Source of the DNA: Escherichia coli
Lineage (GTDB): Bacteria; Pseudomonadota; Gammaproteobacteria; Enterobacterales; Enterobacteriaceae
Reading direction: 5' to 3' (one strand)
Length of the DNA: 64,000 nucleotides
NCBI RefSeq assembly: GCF_003018255.1
Contig: NZ_CP027440.1
Below the pieces are notes generated by a model that was not told where the DNA came from, ran no database searches, and saw nothing but the letters and a program-made list of their open reading frames with translations. Position numbers and translations under genes: made by a program. Below are positions 7,788 through 46,682 of the stretch, in pieces; within the stretch, counting starts at the first letter, position 1; each line of letters begins with the position of its first letter.

Positions 7788-9185
7788 TTACCCCTTAAAC
7801 GTTAACCACGGTCGAAATCTGACCGCTGGCTGAATTAATCCGGCTTCTTGTTGGGCTTCGATAACCGGACCAATATCTTTATAAGCCGCTGGCGCTTCTT
7901 CAAAACGTCGTTCTTCGCGCAATGTGACGCATTGCCACGGCAGCGTTGACTCTTCAGTCGCGCGTGAGCGCATGGCCTGCCGACGCTGGCTGCGTCCTGC
8001 TCCGTGACTGCATGACCACAGCCACTCCGGGTTGCCGCAACCTACCGCAAGCCACGAATAATCGCCCATTGAACCGGGGATTAACGCCAGATTGCCCACT
8101 CGTGCCGGTGTTGCGCCTTTGCGATGAATATTCATTTCATGCTCGCGAAGGATGATGTTATGTGGCACATCCACCACCAGATGCGAATTGTCCTGATGAA
8201 AGAGATTGGCAAGACATACGCGCACCATTTCGGCAATTGTGACGCGATTTAACCATGCGTAACGCGCCGCCATTCCTATCGCTTGTAGATATTCCTCCGC
8301 CAGTCCGCCTGCCAGACCATATAACCCGCTTTGTGGATGTTTATGTCCGGTGGGCCATTCAGCACGGGCGCGATCCATCCAGCGTCTTCCGACGTAAAAG
8401 CCAACATCTCGCGATCCACTGTGGATCATCACCACAATATCGCCTGTTTTCAGCCCTTGTTGCCAGGCTACATGGCGATCAACCACGCTATCAACGACCT
8501 GAAGTTCAATAAAATGATTACCTGAACCCGGCGTACCCAGACAAGGATCGCGGAGTAATGCGCGGTCCGTTGCCTGCAGGGCGGGTGGGGCATAACGCGA
8601 ATGACTGTTATGCTCGTTAAGCCCAATGCAGCGGTCAATCTCTTGTACCATTCGGGGGATATTCGTGCGTATCCAGAGACCTTCTGATGGCAAGGTCGAC
8701 ACGCAATCTGCCGGTCCGCCATCAAAAAGCGCGGTGAACGCCTGTGCGGATAACGGAACATCGCGCTCATTTTGCAGTAGCACTTGCGTTAACCGCTGAG
8801 CGATGACGTCTTTATGCGCTTCGGCTTGCTCAAGTGTTAATCCGGTCGTCAGCAGCCGCATGCCACAAGAAATATCGGTGCCGATGGCGGCGGGAATGAC
8901 TAAATCCGGCGTTGAGGCCACCACCGCGCCAACGGGGACGCCATTGCCGGGATGAAAATCTGGCGTCGCGCACGTCTGGCGCACATAACCTGGGTGGTCT
9001 GGTAGCTTCACTTCTGCAAAATCAAGCAGTTGTGTTACTGCTTTTTCTTCCAGCGGCAGTTCGTCCGGCAGCAGTACGCGGGCACTGGCACCTGATGGAC
9101 GAGATAATGAAACAATATTGTTGGCGCGGGAAAGTTGGATCCCTTTGCGCAGAAAGGCTTTATCAAGCCTTGAAAGATGATGCAT
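7788..9185 (-). CDS. RtcB-family RNA 3'-phosphate ligase paralogue (orphan, no rtcA/rtcR/prfH neighbour)
   Basis: 465-aa ORF; blocks IPAAIGTDISCGM, GSGNHFIELQ, MIHSGSRDVG, ALIPGSMGDYS, CSHGAGRS and C-terminal AYKDIGPV...KG align by eye to E. coli RtcB; about 29-residue N-terminal extension; ATG at 9185. Confidence 0.85.
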   Translation of the reverse strand: MHHLSRLDKAFLRKGIQLSRANNIVSLSRPSGASARVLLPDELPLEEKAVTQLLDFAEVKLPDHPGYVRQTCATPDFHPGNGVPVGAVVASTPDLVIPAAIGTDISCGMRLLTTGLTLEQAEAHKDVIAQRLTQVLLQNERDVPLSAQAFTALFDGGPADCVSTLPSEGLWIRTNIPRMVQEIDRCIGLNEHNSHSRYAPPALQATDRALLRDPCLGTPGSGNHFIELQVVDSVVDRHVAWQQGLKTGDIVVMIHSGSRDVGFYVGRRWMDRARAEWPTGHKHPQSGLYGLAGGLAEEYLQAIGMAARYAWLNRVTIAEMVRVCLANLFHQDNSHLVVDVPHNIILREHEMNIHRKGATPARVGNLALIPGSMGDYSWLAVGCGNPEWLWSCSHGAGRSQRRQAMRSRATEESTLPWQCVTLREERRFEEAPAAYKDIGPVIEAQQEAGLIQPAVRFRPWLTFKG

Positions 9186-9436
9186 AACGCTGTCCTGAAA
9201 TATAGACGTTAAACAACCCCCTGTATGGCGAGGGTAATTTTGTCTTTCCGGTCAGCAGCCAGCAAAAGGGAAAGAAAACGCGCGTAGTGTATGTGGCGAT
9301 AGCAAGTGTTACAAGTGGTAAATCTGGCTTATTGTTAAAGAGGAATTATCTTTTGTGAAGTCTTTTAAGGCCATGACTCATTCAATTTAACCGGACATAG
9401 ATAATATATAACATAGGGTATCTAAATTTATCATTG

Positions 9437-9575
9437 TATACTTGTCATAATTCAAGTTGCATGTGCTGCATCGATGTTCGCTCACCCAGGTCACTTACTT
9501 ATGTAAGCTTCTGGAAATTCATTATTTGTTCCCTTCCTGCAACTTGACTTATTTAGAGTATATTCATGTATACAC
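9437..9575. repeat. ERIC (IRU) repetitive element
   Basis: Contains cgctcaccc.ggtcacttacttatgtaagct (reverse complement of the ERIC2/ERIC1R primer regions) with inverted termini tgtatac...gtataca; near-identical to the copy at 46501-46630. Confidence 0.8.
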
Positions 9576-10060
9576 ATCGAGATTTCAGCCAGCAGACGCG
9601 CATCTGGCGTGCCGTGGCGGATCTGTAGCGGTTTTTGCAGAGTTTCGGTGAGGCGACGGCAAGCTGCAACGCCGTGGTTAACGACCGGTAAACCGTTCAG
9701 TTTAGAGGTTCCGGCTTCGATGGATTTTTTAATCCCTACAGCCGCTTCTTCGTACCGATTCAGACGGGTATATGCATCGATGGTGCTCGGCAGCAGATCG
9801 CACTCTTCTTGTAGTGTTTTCAGTAGTTCGATGTGTTCGTCCATCAGCGCCACACCTGCGCGCGGTTGGCTAAGGGTTTTACCTTCCTTGTCTGCTTTCA
9901 ACAGCGCAAGAGAGAAGCGTTTATGCTCAGGAATGGTTTGTTGGTATTTAACGCCATCTTCAAAGTTTTCAACATCCTTGCCGGTTTCCCAGGTTTTCAG
10001 TACCTGTTGCCGCTCGGTCATGAATTCGTCATGGGTTAATTTCTTATTTCGAAGTTCCAT
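9491..10060 (-). pseudogene. glmE: glutamate mutase E subunit (methylaspartate mutase epsilon), truncated
   Basis: First about 160 aa ([50 protein letters not shown]) match GlmE/MutE; homology ends near 9580 where the frame runs into the ERIC element and stops; full-length GlmE is about 480 aa. Confidence 0.75.
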
Positions 10061-10078: not shown

Positions 10079-11467
10079 TTATAGGGTTAAGCATTGAATA
10101 CTGGTGCGCGCGGCGGCCAGCGGATCGACTCTGGCGACGTTTGCCAGCAGTGGTAATAGCCCCCGGGAATCGCGGTAATATTCAAATTCGGTCGGTAAGA
10201 GAATGCGTTTACCGTCGTCGTTTAACTCGCGGTATTTCAACCAGTGATGCATATCGAACTGACTGGCACGCGAGAGCCATCCGCCGGATCCGACGACTTT
10301 ACGCACGGTTGTCAGGTCACGTCCCATCTGTAAATCGACATTGCCGACGCAGGTGCAGACCTCTTTTTTGGTGCCCGCATGTCTTTCGGTGGCATAACCC
10401 ACACACAGTCCGGCCAGGACGGTATCGAAATATTTTTCTTCTGCATTCGCGGGTAAGTAGTCGGGATGAGCGACTAGATGACGGAGGTAATGATAAAAAG
10501 CGTCCAGCTGTGCGGGTTGCTGAGCAAAATTCACATTGACTAACTCTTTCGCACTTTCACCAACCACCATTGCCGAGACGCGCATTCCCAGATCTCCTTC
10601 CACCGTCCGTTTTACGAAGGGTTCCGGTACGCCATGTAAAACAGTGTCGGGCGAGAGCGTGTTGGCACTGGCGGAATAGACATCGGTGGTTGCGCCACCC
10701 ATGTCGATCAGCATGAACTCTTTCCAGCTGTGATCGACATTACTGATTGCCTTAACCAGTTCAAAGACTGTCCACGGTGTCGGCATTGGTTCTTCGCCTG
10801 TTTTATCAACAACGACATCCAGCCCTTTCCCTTTAACGATGCGTTTAAGGAATATGTCGCAGATAGCCTGGCGTGCAGCTAAAGGGTTCGGATGGTCAAG
10901 ATCGGGCAGAACGTTGTCGACGATGGTCAGGTCTTTATGCCCGAGGATCTCCTGCACCTCGTCCTGAATATCCCGGTTTCCGGCATAAATAATGGCGCAG
11001 TCGAGTTTGGATTCTGCCAACACACGGGCGTTATTCAGTCCGTAGCTTTCTTCTCCGCCATCGGTGCCGCCGGTGAACAAGAGAATATCGGGCTGCGTTT
11101 CTTCCAGTGCCTGGATATCACGGCGGTTCAGCTTGTAGGCGTAAGATTGCGCAATTTTAGCACCCGCAGAGTGAGCGGTTACTTTCGCGGTTTCCAGGGT
11201 GATAGAAGGCACCAATCCCATTGCGGCAACCGCCAGCCCACCTTTGGCAGAGGAGGAATACTTCAATGCAACCTCACCACTGTTTAACAGGGGGAGGGCA
11301 TCATCTACGTTTAACACCTGGTCCAGGCTGGAGAAAAACCCCTTCGCCAGATGATGGGTGGTGGTTGGGGTCAGTACGTGGTTAACCAACGTTAACGCGT
11401 CCCCCTCCCGGGCGAAGAGGGCTGCTTTGGTCCACGTCGATCCAATATCGACAGAGACGATTTGCAT
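10079..11467 (-). CDS. glmL: glutamate mutase accessory protein GlmL/MutL (actin/Hsp70-like fold)
   Basis: 462-aa [21 protein letters not shown], between glmS and glmE as in clostridial mut operons; start overlaps glmS stop. Confidence 0.75.
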   Translation of the reverse strand: MQIVSVDIGSTWTKAALFAREGDALTLVNHVLTPTTTHHLAKGFFSSLDQVLNVDDALPLLNSGEVALKYSSSAKGGLAVAAMGLVPSITLETAKVTAHSAGAKIAQSYAYKLNRRDIQALEETQPDILLFTGGTDGGEESYGLNNARVLAESKLDCAIIYAGNRDIQDEVQEILGHKDLTIVDNVLPDLDHPNPLAARQAICDIFLKRIVKGKGLDVVVDKTGEEPMPTPWTVFELVKAISNVDHSWKEFMLIDMGGATTDVYSASANTLSPDTVLHGVPEPFVKRTVEGDLGMRVSAMVVGESAKELVNVNFAQQPAQLDAFYHYLRHLVAHPDYLPANAEEKYFDTVLAGLCVGYATERHAGTKKEVCTCVGNVDLQMGRDLTTVRKVVGSGGWLSRASQFDMHHWLKYRELNDDGKRILLPTEFEYYRDSRGLLPLLANVARVDPLAAARTSIQCLTL

Positions 11468-11916
11468 CAGATTGCCTCTTCAAGAATACGAGTATCAACG
11501 TCATGACGTTGGTTGATATCGTGGGCCATCAGCTGACAAACATCTTCTAAGTCATGACTTGGGGCAAAGACGCGATCAAATCCCATCTCTTTGAATTTGG
11601 TTTCCACGTCAGCGAAGTCATGTTTTCCGACCACCAGGTTACCGCCCACATAGAGCAGGATGTCCCCCAGTCCACGCTCGATGCAGCGTTCGCGCATGCC
11701 CAGACAGTCGATATCGCCATGCCCATAGATAGAGGAGACGACAATCGCGTCAGCACCAGTTTCAATGGCAGCATCAATATATTCGTCCTGGCTGACCATT
11801 ACGCCCAGATTAATAACTCTGAAGTCATGGTTGCTAAAAACGCGGTCCAGAACTTTATTGCCTACTGCATGGCAGTCCGCGCCAATAACGCCAATCACAA
11901 GTGTTGCTTTCTTCAT
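11467..11916 (-). CDS. glmS: glutamate mutase S subunit (B12-binding sigma subunit)
   Basis: 149 aa from [24 protein letters not shown] with DxHxxG cobalamin-binding motif; GGA-type SD upstream of ATG at 11916 (the track ORF extends further 5'). Confidence 0.82.
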
Positions 11917-12463
11917 GGGTAATCCTTTGTAAGACAGAGAGTAAAATAAGTTACACACGTCGTATTTATGGCCGCTCATAACGGCACAGGTTTAATATCA
12001 CAGGAGTGTCTTTATCTGACCGTAATGTTGCAATTGATCTATTTTCAAAATGTCTTTCGGGAAATGATTGTTTAAAGTGTGTTTTCAAATTCTCATGTTA
12101 ATTCAGTGTGTTATGTCAACTAATGTCATGAATGTTAAATTTTTAAAATTAACTTGATTTGATGTATTGAGATAATTGTGATCAACTTCTAATTTGCATT
12201 TTAGTGATATGGGGTTAGCCATGAGTAAATGCATTTCATAAAAGTTAAGTCGAATTTCACTGCAATTCATCTCTGCTTAATGTAAAAATAATGTTGAAAA
12301 TAACAAATAATTAATGATTCATGCGAATTATGACCTTTGTTAGCTCTTTTGATTTTTCGTAAAAAAGAAAAGTACATGAAGGTGCTACCAGTACGAGAAA
12401 CGTTAATCAAAAGTTTTATTACGTCTGGCAATAACGCAGGCCATTTTTCGCGACAGGAGGGAT

Positions 12464-12886
12464 TTAATCAGTATAATCCTCATACAATAGGTCAGGATTT
12501 ACAGAACCGTTAACGGGGTTTTGGTGTTGAAATTTAGAAATGGTGGAGTCAATCAATGAAGACAGTATCGAAAAAATGACTGTGTCAGAATTAATTTCAA
12601 TTAATCCTTCTCGTTGTTGACCAAAAAAGATATTTATCTTGATTTCATTTGTACTACGGAAATCAATATGTAGTAATTTTTGATCGCTGAGATTTTCTGT
12701 TTCATAAATGTTTTTGGCGATAGTCGGATGTATTGATGCCAGACATCTGCTCAGATAAGCCAGATCCTTTAGGGAACACCCCGCTGAGTAGAGGATGTCA
12801 GAGAATTTTTGTGTGTCAACTGTTGGCTCTGAAGCGTATGTTGCATTGACTGGAAGGGTGTTGAAGGAGATTTGAGATGGGATCAT
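12464..12886 (-). CDS. hypothetical protein, 140 aa, no recognisable family
   Basis: Uninterrupted ORF in a strongly AT-rich block, co-directional with and 80 bp downstream of the 314-aa ORF; weak SD; no motif I can identify. Confidence 0.5.
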   Translation of the reverse strand: MIPSQISFNTLPVNATYASEPTVDTQKFSDILYSAGCSLKDLAYLSRCLASIHPTIAKNIYETENLSDQKLLHIDFRSTNEIKINIFFGQQREGLIEINSDTVIFSILSSLIDSTISKFQHQNPVNGSVNPDLLYEDYTD

Positions 12887-12966: not shown

Positions 12967-13911
12967 TTAAAGTATTTGATTGGCATCGGTTAACTGATCA
13001 ATAACCAGTGCCAGATTGGTAAACATTTTGAAAAAGCGATACTGGCTCGGAATATCTCTTTCAAAGACGAAACATTCAATGTCATTGTTTGAAAAATAAA
13101 GGACTAGTGATGCTGATTCGTCAGGAAAAATATGGAAATATATCTGGTTACCAGAAGGAGGATAGTCCAGAAGAAGGGTATCTTTGCCCGTCACATACCT
13201 GTTGTGGTCGTGGATGCTGCGCTCACACTTCATCAGAGGTGTCATGATACTCATGTATTCATCTGATGTTAATATATTAAAATCACCATCCATTTTAAAG
13301 AAACGATAAAGTAACAGTACATCCTCTTGCGTAACCGGTTCGTTTGTTTTTAGAGGGAAATAAGTGGGAACCAGAAGATGAGGTTCTAATCTATTTTGTT
13401 GAGCGCTATAACTAAATTTGAACATAAATTCCGGATCGCTCATCAATTGAGCGACATAATTATGCCTGGCTTCAAAAATTTTAACTTTTATCAGGTTAAA
13501 TAAGTCTGTTTCGTCATCCTGTATTAAAAGACATTGGCCATAGCAGCCAGGCTTTTTTTCATTATAAGCAGAAACGGTTATTCTGTCAGGAGTGTCAACG
13601 TTATATCCAAAAGCCAGATAGTGACCTTCCTCATCGAGATTTGTTTCCAGGTTATTTAAATTCATCACATGAAGTGTTTGCAATGCTGATTCAATGAGCT
13701 GTTGACTCTCTGAGGTAAATGTTTCGCGCTGCGTTGTATAAAGTGTATCGATTCCAACGACTATCCGATGTGGGTCAAGGATGGCGGCAATCATCTTTAT
13801 TACCTGCACAGTCATGGGTGATGTCATTGATTCTTTATCTGTTTTTAGAGGATCATTAGATGGCCAACCTGAGAAGCGATTGACAGCAGAACTGATAATA
13901 TCAGGACTCAT
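12967..13911 (-). CDS. hypothetical protein, 314 aa, no recognisable family
   Basis: Long ORF in AT-rich DNA with GAGG SD 9 nt upstream of ATG at 13911; no long hydrophobic segments, no P-loop or other motif recognised. Confidence 0.6.
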   Translation of the reverse strand: MSPDIISSAVNRFSGWPSNDPLKTDKESMTSPMTVQVIKMIAAILDPHRIVVGIDTLYTTQRETFTSESQQLIESALQTLHVMNLNNLETNLDEEGHYLAFGYNVDTPDRITVSAYNEKKPGCYGQCLLIQDDETDLFNLIKVKIFEARHNYVAQLMSDPEFMFKFSYSAQQNRLEPHLLVPTYFPLKTNEPVTQEDVLLLYRFFKMDGDFNILTSDEYMSIMTPLMKCERSIHDHNRYVTGKDTLLLDYPPSGNQIYFHIFPDESASLVLYFSNNDIECFVFERDIPSQYRFFKMFTNLALVIDQLTDANQIL

Positions 13912-16300: not shown

Positions 16301-17440
16301 ATGATCGATTATGAAGTATTGCGTTTTATCTGGTGGCTGCTGGTTGGCGTTCTGCTGATTGGTTTTGCAGTCACTGACGGTTTCGACATGGGGGTGGGCA
16401 TGCTCACTCGTTTCCTCGGTCGTAACGACACCGAGCGTCGAATTATGATTAACTCCATTGCACCACACTGGGACGGTAACCAGGTATGGCTTATCACCGC
16501 GGGCGGCGCACTCTTTGCTGCCTGGCCGATGGTCTATGCCGCTGCGTTCTCCGGCTTCTATGTGGCGATGATCCTCGTGCTGGCGTCTTTGTTCTTCCGT
16601 CCGGTCGGTTTTGACTACCGCTCCAAGATTGAAGAAACCCGCTGGCGTAACATGTGGGACTGGGGCATCTTCATTGGTAGCTTCGTTCCGCCGTTGGTGA
16701 TTGGTGTAGCGTTCGGTAACCTGTTGCAGGGCGTACCGTTCAACGTTGATGAATATCTGCGTCTGTACTACACCGGTAACTTCTTCCACCTGCTTAATCC
16801 GTTCGGCCTGCTGGCAGGCGTGGTGAGCGTAGGGATGATCATTACTCAGGGCGCAACCTATCTGCAAATGCGTACCGTGGGCGAACTGCACCTGCGTACC
16901 CGTGCAACGGCTCAGGTGGCGGCACTGGTGACACTGGTCTGTTTCGCACTGGCTGGCGTATGGGTGATGTACGGTATCGATGGTTATGTCGTGAAATCGA
17001 CAATGGACCATTACGCAGCCTCTAACCCACTGAATAAAGAAGTGGTTCGTGAAGCTGGCGCATGGCTGGTTAACTTCAACAACACGCCAATTCTGTGGGC
17101 TATTCCGGCACTGGGTGTGGTTCTGCCGCTGCTGACCATCCTGACTGCACGTATGGATAAAGCGGCGTGGGCGTTTGTGTTCTCCTCCCTGACGCTGGCC
17201 TGCATCATCCTGACAGCCGGTATCGCAATGTTCCCGTTTGTGATGCCGTCCAGCACCATGATGAACGCAAGTCTGACAATGTGGGATGCAACTTCCAGCC
17301 AGCTGACGCTTAACGTCATGACCTGGGTTGCGGTGGTTCTGGTACCGATCATTCTGCTCTACACCGCCTGGTGTTACTGGAAAATGTTCGGTCGTATCAC
17401 CAAAGAAGATATTGAACGTAACACCCACTCTCTGTACTAA
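16301..17440 (+). CDS. cydB: cytochrome bd-I ubiquinol oxidase subunit II
   Basis: 379-aa polytopic membrane protein MIDYEVLRFIWWLLVGV immediately after cydA. Confidence 0.96.
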   Translation: MIDYEVLRFIWWLLVGVLLIGFAVTDGFDMGVGMLTRFLGRNDTERRIMINSIAPHWDGNQVWLITAGGALFAAWPMVYAAAFSGFYVAMILVLASLFFRPVGFDYRSKIEETRWRNMWDWGIFIGSFVPPLVIGVAFGNLLQGVPFNVDEYLRLYYTGNFFHLLNPFGLLAGVVSVGMIITQGATYLQMRTVGELHLRTRATAQVAALVTLVCFALAGVWVMYGIDGYVVKSTMDHYAASNPLNKEVVREAGAWLVNFNNTPILWAIPALGVVLPLLTILTARMDKAAWAFVFSSLTLACIILTAGIAMFPFVMPSSTMMNASLTMWDATSSQLTLNVMTWVAVVLVPIILLYTAWCYWKMFGRITKEDIERNTHSLY

Positions 17441-23812: not shown

Positions 23813-23888
23813 GGGTCGTTAGCTCAGTTGGTAGAGCAGTTGACTTTTAATCAATTGGTCGCAGGTTCGAATCCTGCACGACCCACCA
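23813..23888 (+). tRNA. lysT: tRNA-Lys (UUU)
   Basis: 76-nt gggtcgttagctcagttggtagagcagttgacttttaatc...cccacca; anticodon loop cttttaa; symbol assigned by position in the cluster. Confidence 0.92.
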
Positions 23889-24023
23889 ATCGCTAAGGTG
23901 GAAGCGGTAGTAAAACGTGAAGGATAACGTTGCGTCAGCAACGGCCCGAAGGGCGAGACGAAGTCGAGTCATCCTGCACGACCCACCACTAACCTAGTTA
24001 GTTGTAGTATCCAGCGTAGTATC

Positions 24024-24099
24024 GGGTGATTAGCTCAGCTGGGAGAGCACCTCCCTTACAAGGAGGGGGTCGGCGGTTCGATCCCGTCATCACCCACCA
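24024..24099 (+). tRNA. valT: tRNA-Val (UAC)
   Basis: 76-nt gggtgattagctcagctgggagagcacctcccttacaagg...cacccacca; anticodon TAC. Confidence 0.92.
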
Positions 24100-24101
24100 C
24101 C

Positions 24102-24177
24102 GGGTCGTTAGCTCAGTTGGTAGAGCAGTTGACTTTTAATCAATTGGTCGCAGGTTCGAATCCTGCACGACCCACCA
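24102..24177 (+). tRNA. lysW: tRNA-Lys (UUU)
   Basis: Identical to the lysT sequence, 2 nt after valT. Confidence 0.92.
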
Positions 24178-24228
24178 CTAATTACGGTGGGTTCGGTGGA
24201 AGTAGTTTGTAGTATTCAGCGCAGTATC

Positions 24229-24304
24229 GGGTGATTAGCTCAGCTGGGAGAGCACCTCCCTTACAAGGAGGGGGTCGGCGGTTCGATCCCGTCATCACCC
24301 ACCA
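24229..24304 (+). tRNA. valZ: tRNA-Val (UAC)
   Basis: Identical to the valT sequence. Confidence 0.92.
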
Positions 24305-24307
24305 CTC

Positions 24308-24383
24308 GGGTCGTTAGCTCAGTTGGTAGAGCAGTTGACTTTTAATCAATTGGTCGCAGGTTCGAATCCTGCACGACCCACCA
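24308..24383 (+). tRNA. lysY: tRNA-Lys (UUU)
   Basis: Identical tRNA-Lys copy. Confidence 0.92.
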
Positions 24384-24529
24384 GTTTTAACATCAAACTC
24401 AGATGTTAAGCGTGAAGGATAACGTTGCGCCAGCAACGGCCCGTAGGGCGAGCGAAGCGAGTCATCCTGCACGACCCACCAATTTTAAAGATTGGTTCCG
24501 AGTAGAAATCTTTCAGGTAACACCCGTAT

Positions 24530-24605
24530 GGGTCGTTAGCTCAGTTGGTAGAGCAGTTGACTTTTAATCAATTGGTCGCAGGTTCGAATCCTGCACGACC
24601 CACCA
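24530..24605 (+). tRNA. lysZ: tRNA-Lys (UUU)
   Basis: Identical tRNA-Lys copy. Confidence 0.92.
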
Positions 24606-24638
24606 TCCTGAATGATTAAAGCAGCATAATCCCGCAAG

Positions 24639-24714
24639 GGGTCGTTAGCTCAGTTGGTAGAGCAGTTGACTTTTAATCAATTGGTCGCAGGTTCGAATCC
24701 TGCACGACCCACCA
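24639..24714 (+). tRNA. lysQ: tRNA-Lys (UUU)
   Basis: Identical tRNA-Lys copy, last gene of the cluster. Confidence 0.92.
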
Positions 24715-25066
24715 ATGTAAAAAAGCGCCCTAAAGGCGCTTTTTTGCTATCTGCGATACTCAAAGATTCGAACCTGCAGCAGGTTCGAGTTGAGCGCAGC
24801 GAAACAACGGAGCCGCTCGCGGCGACGGCCCGTAGGGCGAGCGAAGCGAGTTATCCTGCACGACCCACCAATGTAAAAAAGCGCCCTAAAGGCGCTTTTT
24901 TGCTATCTGCGATACTCAAAGATTCGAACCTGCAGCAGGTTCGAGTTGAGCGCAGCGAAATAACGGAGCCGCTCGCGGCGACGGCCCGTAGGGCGAGCGA
25001 AGCGAGTCATCCTGCACGACCCACCAATGTAAAAAAGCGCCCTAAAGGCGCTTTTTTGCTATTCAG
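24715..25066 (+). repeat. 156-bp direct tandem repeat (2 full units plus a partial), each with an intrinsic terminator and a tRNA-Lys 3'-end-like segment
   Basis: Units 24715-24870 and 24871-25026 nearly identical; each has hairpin aaaaaagcgccctaaaggcgcttttttgc and ends in atcctgcacgacccacca; partial third unit to about 25066. Confidence 0.85.
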
Positions 25067-46500: not shown

Positions 46501-46630
46501 ATATACTCGTCATACTTCAAGTTGCATGTGCTGCGTCTGCGTTCGCTCACCCCAGTCACTTACTTATGTAAGCTCCTGGGGATTCACTCGCTTGTCGCCT
46601 TCCTGCAACTCGAATTATTTAGAGTATATC
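46501..46630. repeat. ERIC (IRU) repetitive element
   Basis: atatactcgtcat...cgctcaccccagtcacttacttatgtaagctcctggggattcac...gagtatat; palindromic; matches the ERIC1R/ERIC2 primer regions. Confidence 0.85.
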
Positions 46631-46682
46631 CATTTATTATCTTTCTGCGCACTTCACGGTGCGCAGATATCTGGAGCATTTG

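Follow-up and report, generated by a model that had tools for sequence, protein, structure and literature searches.

Within the 64,000-nucleotide stretch of Escherichia coli DNA analysed here (the window; contig NZ_CP027440.1 of assembly GCF_003018255.1), the glutamate-fermentation island has lost 8,843 bp, and the resulting junction lies 10 nt past the end of an ERIC element (copy A, 9437..9562, plus strand). The first-pass annotation had correctly placed copy A at a deletion junction and had taken its presence there as consistent with an ERIC-associated rearrangement; we find no positive support for that association, given that the ERIC pre-exists in 145 genomes, that the break falls outside it, that filler bases mark the junction and that homology is lacking. 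We consider it very probable that one illegitimate, homology-independent deletion would have extended from 10 nt right of the ERIC to just past codon 162 of glmE, its ends having been joined via two filler bases, and that the ERIC was a bystander, present before the event and unchanged by it. Read-through into the repeat would then have given the glmE pseudogene 23 codons and a stop, and the consequence would have been the loss of the methylaspartate pathway (mal, fumD, the transporter and the regulator). Sequence by itself cannot prove how a single past deletion came about; the molecular route was presumably either replication slippage or a break followed by end-joining, and the deletion itself probably represents neutral or loss-of-function decay.

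The state of the locus before the deletion can be read directly from intact genomes. Kronen & Berg (2015, PMC4682846) described a glutamate-fermentation (methylaspartate pathway) cluster with fumD for E. coli O157:H7 and further Enterobacteriaceae, and the island agrees with that cluster in its genes, their order and their location by cydA (glmS, glmL, glmE, mal, the DUF1446/AtuA family gene, DUF4387, and further a gltP-like gene, fumD, cobA/cobO and the LysR gene), but in the window glmS, glmL and a third of glmE are all that survives. In strain 103 the intact order runs from mngB through the RtcB-family gene (minus strand), a 590-bp spacer with the ERIC, the LysR gene (plus strand), cobO, a class I fumarase gene, a dicarboxylate/amino-acid symporter gene, DUF4387, the AtuA-family gene, mal, glmE, glmL, glmS and two hypothetical genes to cydA; strain ETEC1738 has the same arrangement, except that sucD stands directly left of the RtcB-family gene. 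The ERIC sits intact in the RtcB-LysR spacer, at the left end of the island, in 145 of the 150 genomes that carry copy A. In these intact genomes mal abuts glmE without an intervening ERIC, the element being 8.8 kb away, so that the glmE-mal junction envisaged by the first-pass annotation does not correspond to the actual one, whose right break falls inside glmE.

Across E. coli, the island has a mosaic left end, for which we observed four arrangements, those of strain 103, ETEC1738, IAI39 and O157:H7. In IAI39 the order is RtcB-hutU-permease-hutD-hutI-hutG-HAL-LysR without an ERIC, a histidine-utilisation cluster (which yields glutamate) thereby directly adjoining the glutamate-fermentation genes. 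O157:H7 has sucD, two RtcB 3' remnants (40-57 nt, 93% identity) and then the LysR gene, with no ERIC, and so differs from the window, where the left end of the island has both an RtcB-family gene and the ERIC. This gene (7788..9185, minus strand, 465 aa; Pfam RtcB, 320 bits) is the left neighbour of copy A; its product scores under every NCBIfam equivalog cut-off, and the nearby annotation includes neither an RtcA nor an RtcR partner. The deletion has left the gene downstream of glmS-glmL-glmE' and in the same orientation. Intact glmL (10079..11467, minus strand) and glmS (minus strand, from 11467 to 11979, with a RefSeq start at about 11916) are the surviving orphans of the mutase operon, and at the right end of the island lie two hypothetical genes of about 37% GC (12464-12886, minus strand, 140 aa; 12967-13911, minus strand, 314 aa) which have no Pfam or NCBIfam match; both are conserved across O157:H7 and the deletion strains.

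Comparison of the window with these intact loci fixes the breakpoints to the nucleotide. The lost segment comprises the LysR gene, cobO, fumD, the symporter gene, DUF4387, the AtuA-family gene, mal and codons 163-481 of glmE. The left break follows position 9572, 10 nt outside the ERIC, the 10 nt of original right flank that were retained (9563..9572, TTCATGTATA) matching strain 103 and ETEC1738 up to 9572, and the right break lies within glmE. The left parent reads ...GAGTATATTCATGTATA|TGAATAATATTC... (in short, ...CATGTATA|TGAATA...), the right parent, read in two intact strains, ...AAGCCGCTGGC|CATCGAGATTTC... (...GCTGGC|CATCGAG...), and the product in the window ...GAGTATATTCATGTATA-CA-CATCGAGATTTC... 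(...CATGTATA-CA-CATCGAG...). The two filler bases CA (9573..9574) occur in neither parent, the left one having TG and the right one GC at these positions, and the overlap at the junction is 0 nt, as expected of an illegitimate deletion. The longest string common to the two breakpoint neighbourhoods (60 nt on either side) has 7 nt, where shuffled sequences give 6.2 on average and 10 at most, and a search of the intact 18.5-kb locus for a second ERIC found exactly one element and none near mal or glmE. A single ERIC per intact locus together with chance-level homology therefore argues for an illegitimate deletion and against ERIC-ERIC recombination; the features of a repeat-mediated deletion, namely a repeat at both endpoints and a hybrid repeat at the junction, are absent. 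In the intact state a small 7-bp palindrome, TATTCAT-gtat-ATGAATA (TATTCATgtatATGAATA), straddles the end of the ERIC and includes the 10-nt flank, and the break occurred right after the loop of this palindrome. A scan for promoters and terminators around the junction returned none above shuffle expectation.

What remains of glmE, which encodes methylaspartate (glutamate) mutase subunit E, occupies 9575..10060 on the minus strand and comprises codons 1-162 of 481. Its translation is identical to intact GlmE through ...LLAEISM and matches positions 1-162 of the 480 of the GlmE profile TIGR01503 with 254 bits, below the cut-off of 390, i.e. it falls short of a full-length protein. The frame nonetheless continues across the junction, giving a chimeric ORF (9491..10060, minus strand) of 189 aa, 162 from GlmE followed by a 27-aa tail and TAA. 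It had been proposed that the ERIC contributes the last 28 codons and the stop; the stop does come from the repeat, but the tail counts 27 codons plus stop, the first 4 of which derive from the filler and the 10-nt flank, and only 23 (codons 5-27), along with the stop, from the minus strand of the ERIC. The RefSeq glmE pseudogene annotation covers only 9575-10060, and the 189-aa ORF is best annotated as a pseudogene of glmE whose tail derives from a repeat. Copy A lies inside an ORF in the window only because of the deletion; no ERIC was found inside a full-length glmE.

That the sequence adjoining the junction is ERIC-like, and that a second ERIC in the same orientation lies about 37 kb away, between ybhI and ybhJ (copy B, 46502..46628, plus strand), had been proposed from the letters alone, and both copies are indeed genuine members of the ERIC/IRU family of MITE-like imperfect palindromes of about 127 bp, as judged by primer sites, termini, hairpins and distribution. 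Copy A measures 126 bp (37% GC) and copy B 127 bp (46% GC), in keeping with a unit length of about 124-127 bp. The conserved core is present: relative to the ERIC1R and ERIC2 primers, whose sequences were confirmed from the literature and occur together in 246 papers, copy B has no mismatch to ERIC1R and none to ERIC2 (reverse complement), and copy A has 4 and 2, respectively, over 22 nt each. Both elements possess the inverted termini TATAC...GTATA, with 21 of 30 terminal positions complementary, and both fold into hairpins paired from end to end with minimum free energies that no shuffle equalled (copy A, -32.8 and -32.5 kcal/mol, z about -4, and -4.3 at -32.8; copy B, -43.2 kcal/mol on the plus strand and -52.9 on the minus strand, z -6.2 and -7.7). 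Used as blastn queries, A and B each match over their full length in 5,425 of the 5,426 complete genomes of E. coli, which, with an E value of about 1e-30 at 85% identity, places the similarity between the two copies far above chance. Copy B retrieves 11 places in the median genome (range 2-21; 3,848 records at 99% identity or more), and copy A retrieves 6 (range 2-11), with full-length matches at 80-90% identity; the distinct ERIC loci retrieved include preT-yeiS, pgk-fbaA, ybhI-ybhJ and a site downstream of narK. Both copies are extragenic, B between ybhI and ybhJ and A between the RtcB and LysR genes of intact genomes. Rfam contains no ERIC family, the matches from a scan of the window being limited to tRNAs, RtT, the Moco riboswitch and the cpoB thermometer.

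The elements, known as ERIC, IRU or RU-1, are reportedly covered by Sharples & Lloyd 1990, Hulton et al. 1991 and Wilson & Sharp 2006. ERICs have been characterized as 127-bp MITEs with terminal inverted repeats and TA termini (PMC3184786, PMC2229807), co-transcribed with adjacent genes and exerting effects on mRNA stability that depend on orientation (PMC3184786, PMC2229807, PMC10969869), and occasional ERIC reading frames in-frame with host ORFs were described earlier (PMC2229807). Our two copies conform to this picture in their length of 126-127 bp, conserved core, TA-ended terminal inverted repeats, long imperfect hairpin and dispersed multicopy distribution, as does copy B in being intergenic near a stop codon. 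Copy A, in contrast, is located in accessory DNA, where it is flanked by divergent genes and not part of an operon, owes its ORF fusion to the deletion of adjacent DNA rather than to insertion into a gene, and is unusually diverged, with a weakened central stem.

The exact limits of the elements matter to the position of the break, and were fixed for both copies by an alignment of five (A, B and the preT-yeiS, pgk-fbaA and narK copies), in which family similarity runs from TATAC to ...GAGTATA and the flanks are unrelated. Since similarity ends there, the earlier end of copy A at 9575 overshoots by the 10 nt of flank, the 2 filler nt and the first base of glmE. A repeat finder had grouped the copies into a single family of two direct repeats (9437-9521/46502-46586 and 9526-9571/46592-46637, at an offset of 37,065 nt), and the 9 nt that follow A (TTCATGTAT) and B (TCCATTTAT) are alike enough to suggest that the ERIC reaches the breakpoint; we rejected this extension because unrelated sequence occupies that place in three other ERIC loci. 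Copy B begins 1 nt past the stop codon of ybhI and ends 54 nt ahead of the ATG of ybhJ, these two genes being co-oriented. Between it and the ybhJ start codon, outside the ERIC, there is a perfect 8-bp GC-rich hairpin, CTGCGCAC-ttcacg-GTGCGCAG (46645-46666), without a T-run.

The two copies had also been called near-identical, and while all four identical stretches quoted in support are present in both, that description is too strong: in a global alignment 108 of the 127 columns are identical (85%), there is a single 1-nt gap, and the longest exact runs are 20, 19, 14, 13 and 12 nt. Copy A is in fact the outlier of the family, reaching 83.5-85.0% identity at most with other copies, compared with 97.6-98.4% between copy B and the preT-yeiS and pgk-fbaA copies. 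It departs from the consensus of the other copies in 18 columns, 13 of them GC-to-AT as against 3 AT-to-GC, and has matches of at least 90% identity in no more than 150 of the 5,426 complete genomes; being diverged, AT-shifted and rare, it is therefore no recent copy of B. Copy A, AT-shifted and probably either older or foreign, belongs to the RtcB-LysR spacer in one structural variant of the island, the spacer sequence around it being unique to the ERIC-bearing variant, and copy B is a conserved copy of the core genome. Among the E. coli genomes inspected, none came to light in which the site of copy A is empty. For typing, copy A constitutes a site relevant to ERIC-PCR whose primer targets contain mismatches, and it is present in about 3% of genomes.

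The divergence between the copies also bears on the suggestion that they could mediate recombination across the intervening DNA. Efficient RecA-dependent exchange in E. coli takes roughly 23-27 bp of identity or more, and mismatch repair suppresses homeologous exchange; the longest identical runs shared by A and B are 20 and 19 nt. A predicted A-by-B recombinant, built with the crossover in the 20-nt identical run and searched for at a coverage of at least 80%, was found in 0 of 5,426 genomes, a search of limited power because only about 150 of these carry copy A and could have produced it. The product would drop 37 kb including cydAB, tol-pal, seven tRNA genes, gal and mod, from a gene order that runs in the window as sucCD-mngRAB-[island]-cydAB-tol-pal-lysT/valT tRNAs-nadA-gal-mod-ybhI/ybhJ-bio-uvrB-moa. 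Recombination between A and B is unlikely. The lysT-valT cluster in this interval (23813-25062; 5 tRNA-Lys and 2 tRNA-Val) contains four RtT matches (Rfam), together with RtT-like repeats and with 156-nt tandem units that end in tRNA 3'-end fragments and terminator-like hairpins.

As for the frequency of the deletion, the junction occurs in 5 of the 5,426 complete genomes, fully covered at 99.5-100% identity; their countries of origin are Japan, China and Mexico, and their hosts human, pig and monkey. It is base-identical in four sequences, those of the window, JNE23-011, A25 and DCE7. Around the junction the window is 100% identical to JNE23-011, from which it differs by a SNP at 16798 and by a 1-nt shift of annotated gene ends near 46.5 kb. 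Of 2,991 flanking positions, 38 distinguish A25 (monkey, Mexico) and DCE7 (pig, China) from the window, none of them in 9309-9667. This base-identical junction on two haplotypes points to one event, since inherited or transferred, and hence to a single origin of the deletion, which the sequence comparison appears to establish. The 38 differences between the haplotypes (window/JNE23-011 versus A25/DCE7) are unevenly distributed, 27 of them falling within about 450 nt (8575-9027) in the 5' part of the RtcB-family gene, a clustering that suggests a recombination patch. The 150 genomes with copy A comprise the 145 intact ones and the 5 with this deletion, so that all are either intact or have the same junction, and there is no sign of recurrent breakage at this ERIC.

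The ERIC pre-dates the deletion, as 145 undeleted genomes have it in the identical position, bordered by the same sequence on the left and by the same 10 nt on the right. Since ERICs are considered to be mobile and MITE-like, with TA termini (PMC3184786, PMC2229807), one might imagine that the element transposed into an already existing deletion junction; the intact loci with their identical flanks refute this, no genome bearing the deletion without the ERIC was found among the 5,426, and we give the idea practically no credence. Hardly any probability attaches either to homologous recombination between the spacer ERIC and a former ERIC near glmE or mal that would have left a hybrid element, for which nothing speaks beyond the fact that an ERIC adjoins the junction. 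Here again the intact-locus sequences provide the refutation, in that islands with exactly one ERIC in 18.5 kb have none near mal or glmE, the element in the window equals the pre-deletion copy bar 1-2 strain SNPs, and the break lies outside it with 10 nt of original flank retained. Repeats can cause mis-assemblies, so that a collapse or mis-join at the repeat might in principle have created the junction; yet the latter recurs in five independent complete genomes, is base-identical in three that were read directly and falls outside the repeat, and an assembly artefact is accordingly extremely improbable.

It is conceivable that the structure of the ERIC region contributed to the break, considering that the break lies 10 nt from the end of the ERIC, at the loop/stem boundary of the palindrome. 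According to such an explanation, the ERIC or the palindrome at its edge was extruded during replication, and a break (e.g. by SbcCD cleavage) or slippage set the left endpoint; if true, the rearrangement would be ERIC-associated structurally, not by homology. The position of the left break, directly after the loop of the 7-bp palindrome, and the fact that the ERIC folds significantly better than shuffles (z about -4) are in its favor. Yet this is a single event, the 150 genomes with copy A showing either the intact locus or this one junction; a break inside the ERIC or within 10 nt of it has an estimated chance of about 25% (146/590) in the 590-bp spacer; the small palindrome is weak and AT-rich; the hairpin of copy A is weaker than that of copy B; and the island has also been eroded by deletions without any ERIC, as in O157:H7. 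With one event, a weak palindrome and a chance of some 25%, the position of the break does not constitute evidence for a role of the ERIC, and we deem stimulation by structure unlikely. Rather doubtful, too, is the broader proposal that ERICs act as fragile sites seeding homology-independent deletions in the accessory islands of E. coli, with the junction in the window as one example. With other spontaneous illegitimate deletions in E. coli, and with the formation of pseudogenes in accessory islands, the event in the window shares zero junction homology, a short filler, its occurrence as one event in a small clade and the loss of a dispensable pathway; it is not distinctive, and the adjacent palindrome alone hints at a structural trigger.

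The bystander reading thus leaves a known repeat family, a known accessory island and an ordinary lineage-specific deletion that happens to end by a repeat. The case illustrates that a repeat adjoining a junction is in itself no evidence that the repeat caused the rearrangement. For the organism, it means that a small lineage of E. coli, represented by 5 of 5,426 complete genomes, has lost glutamate fermentation by the methylaspartate pathway through one 8.8-kb deletion.
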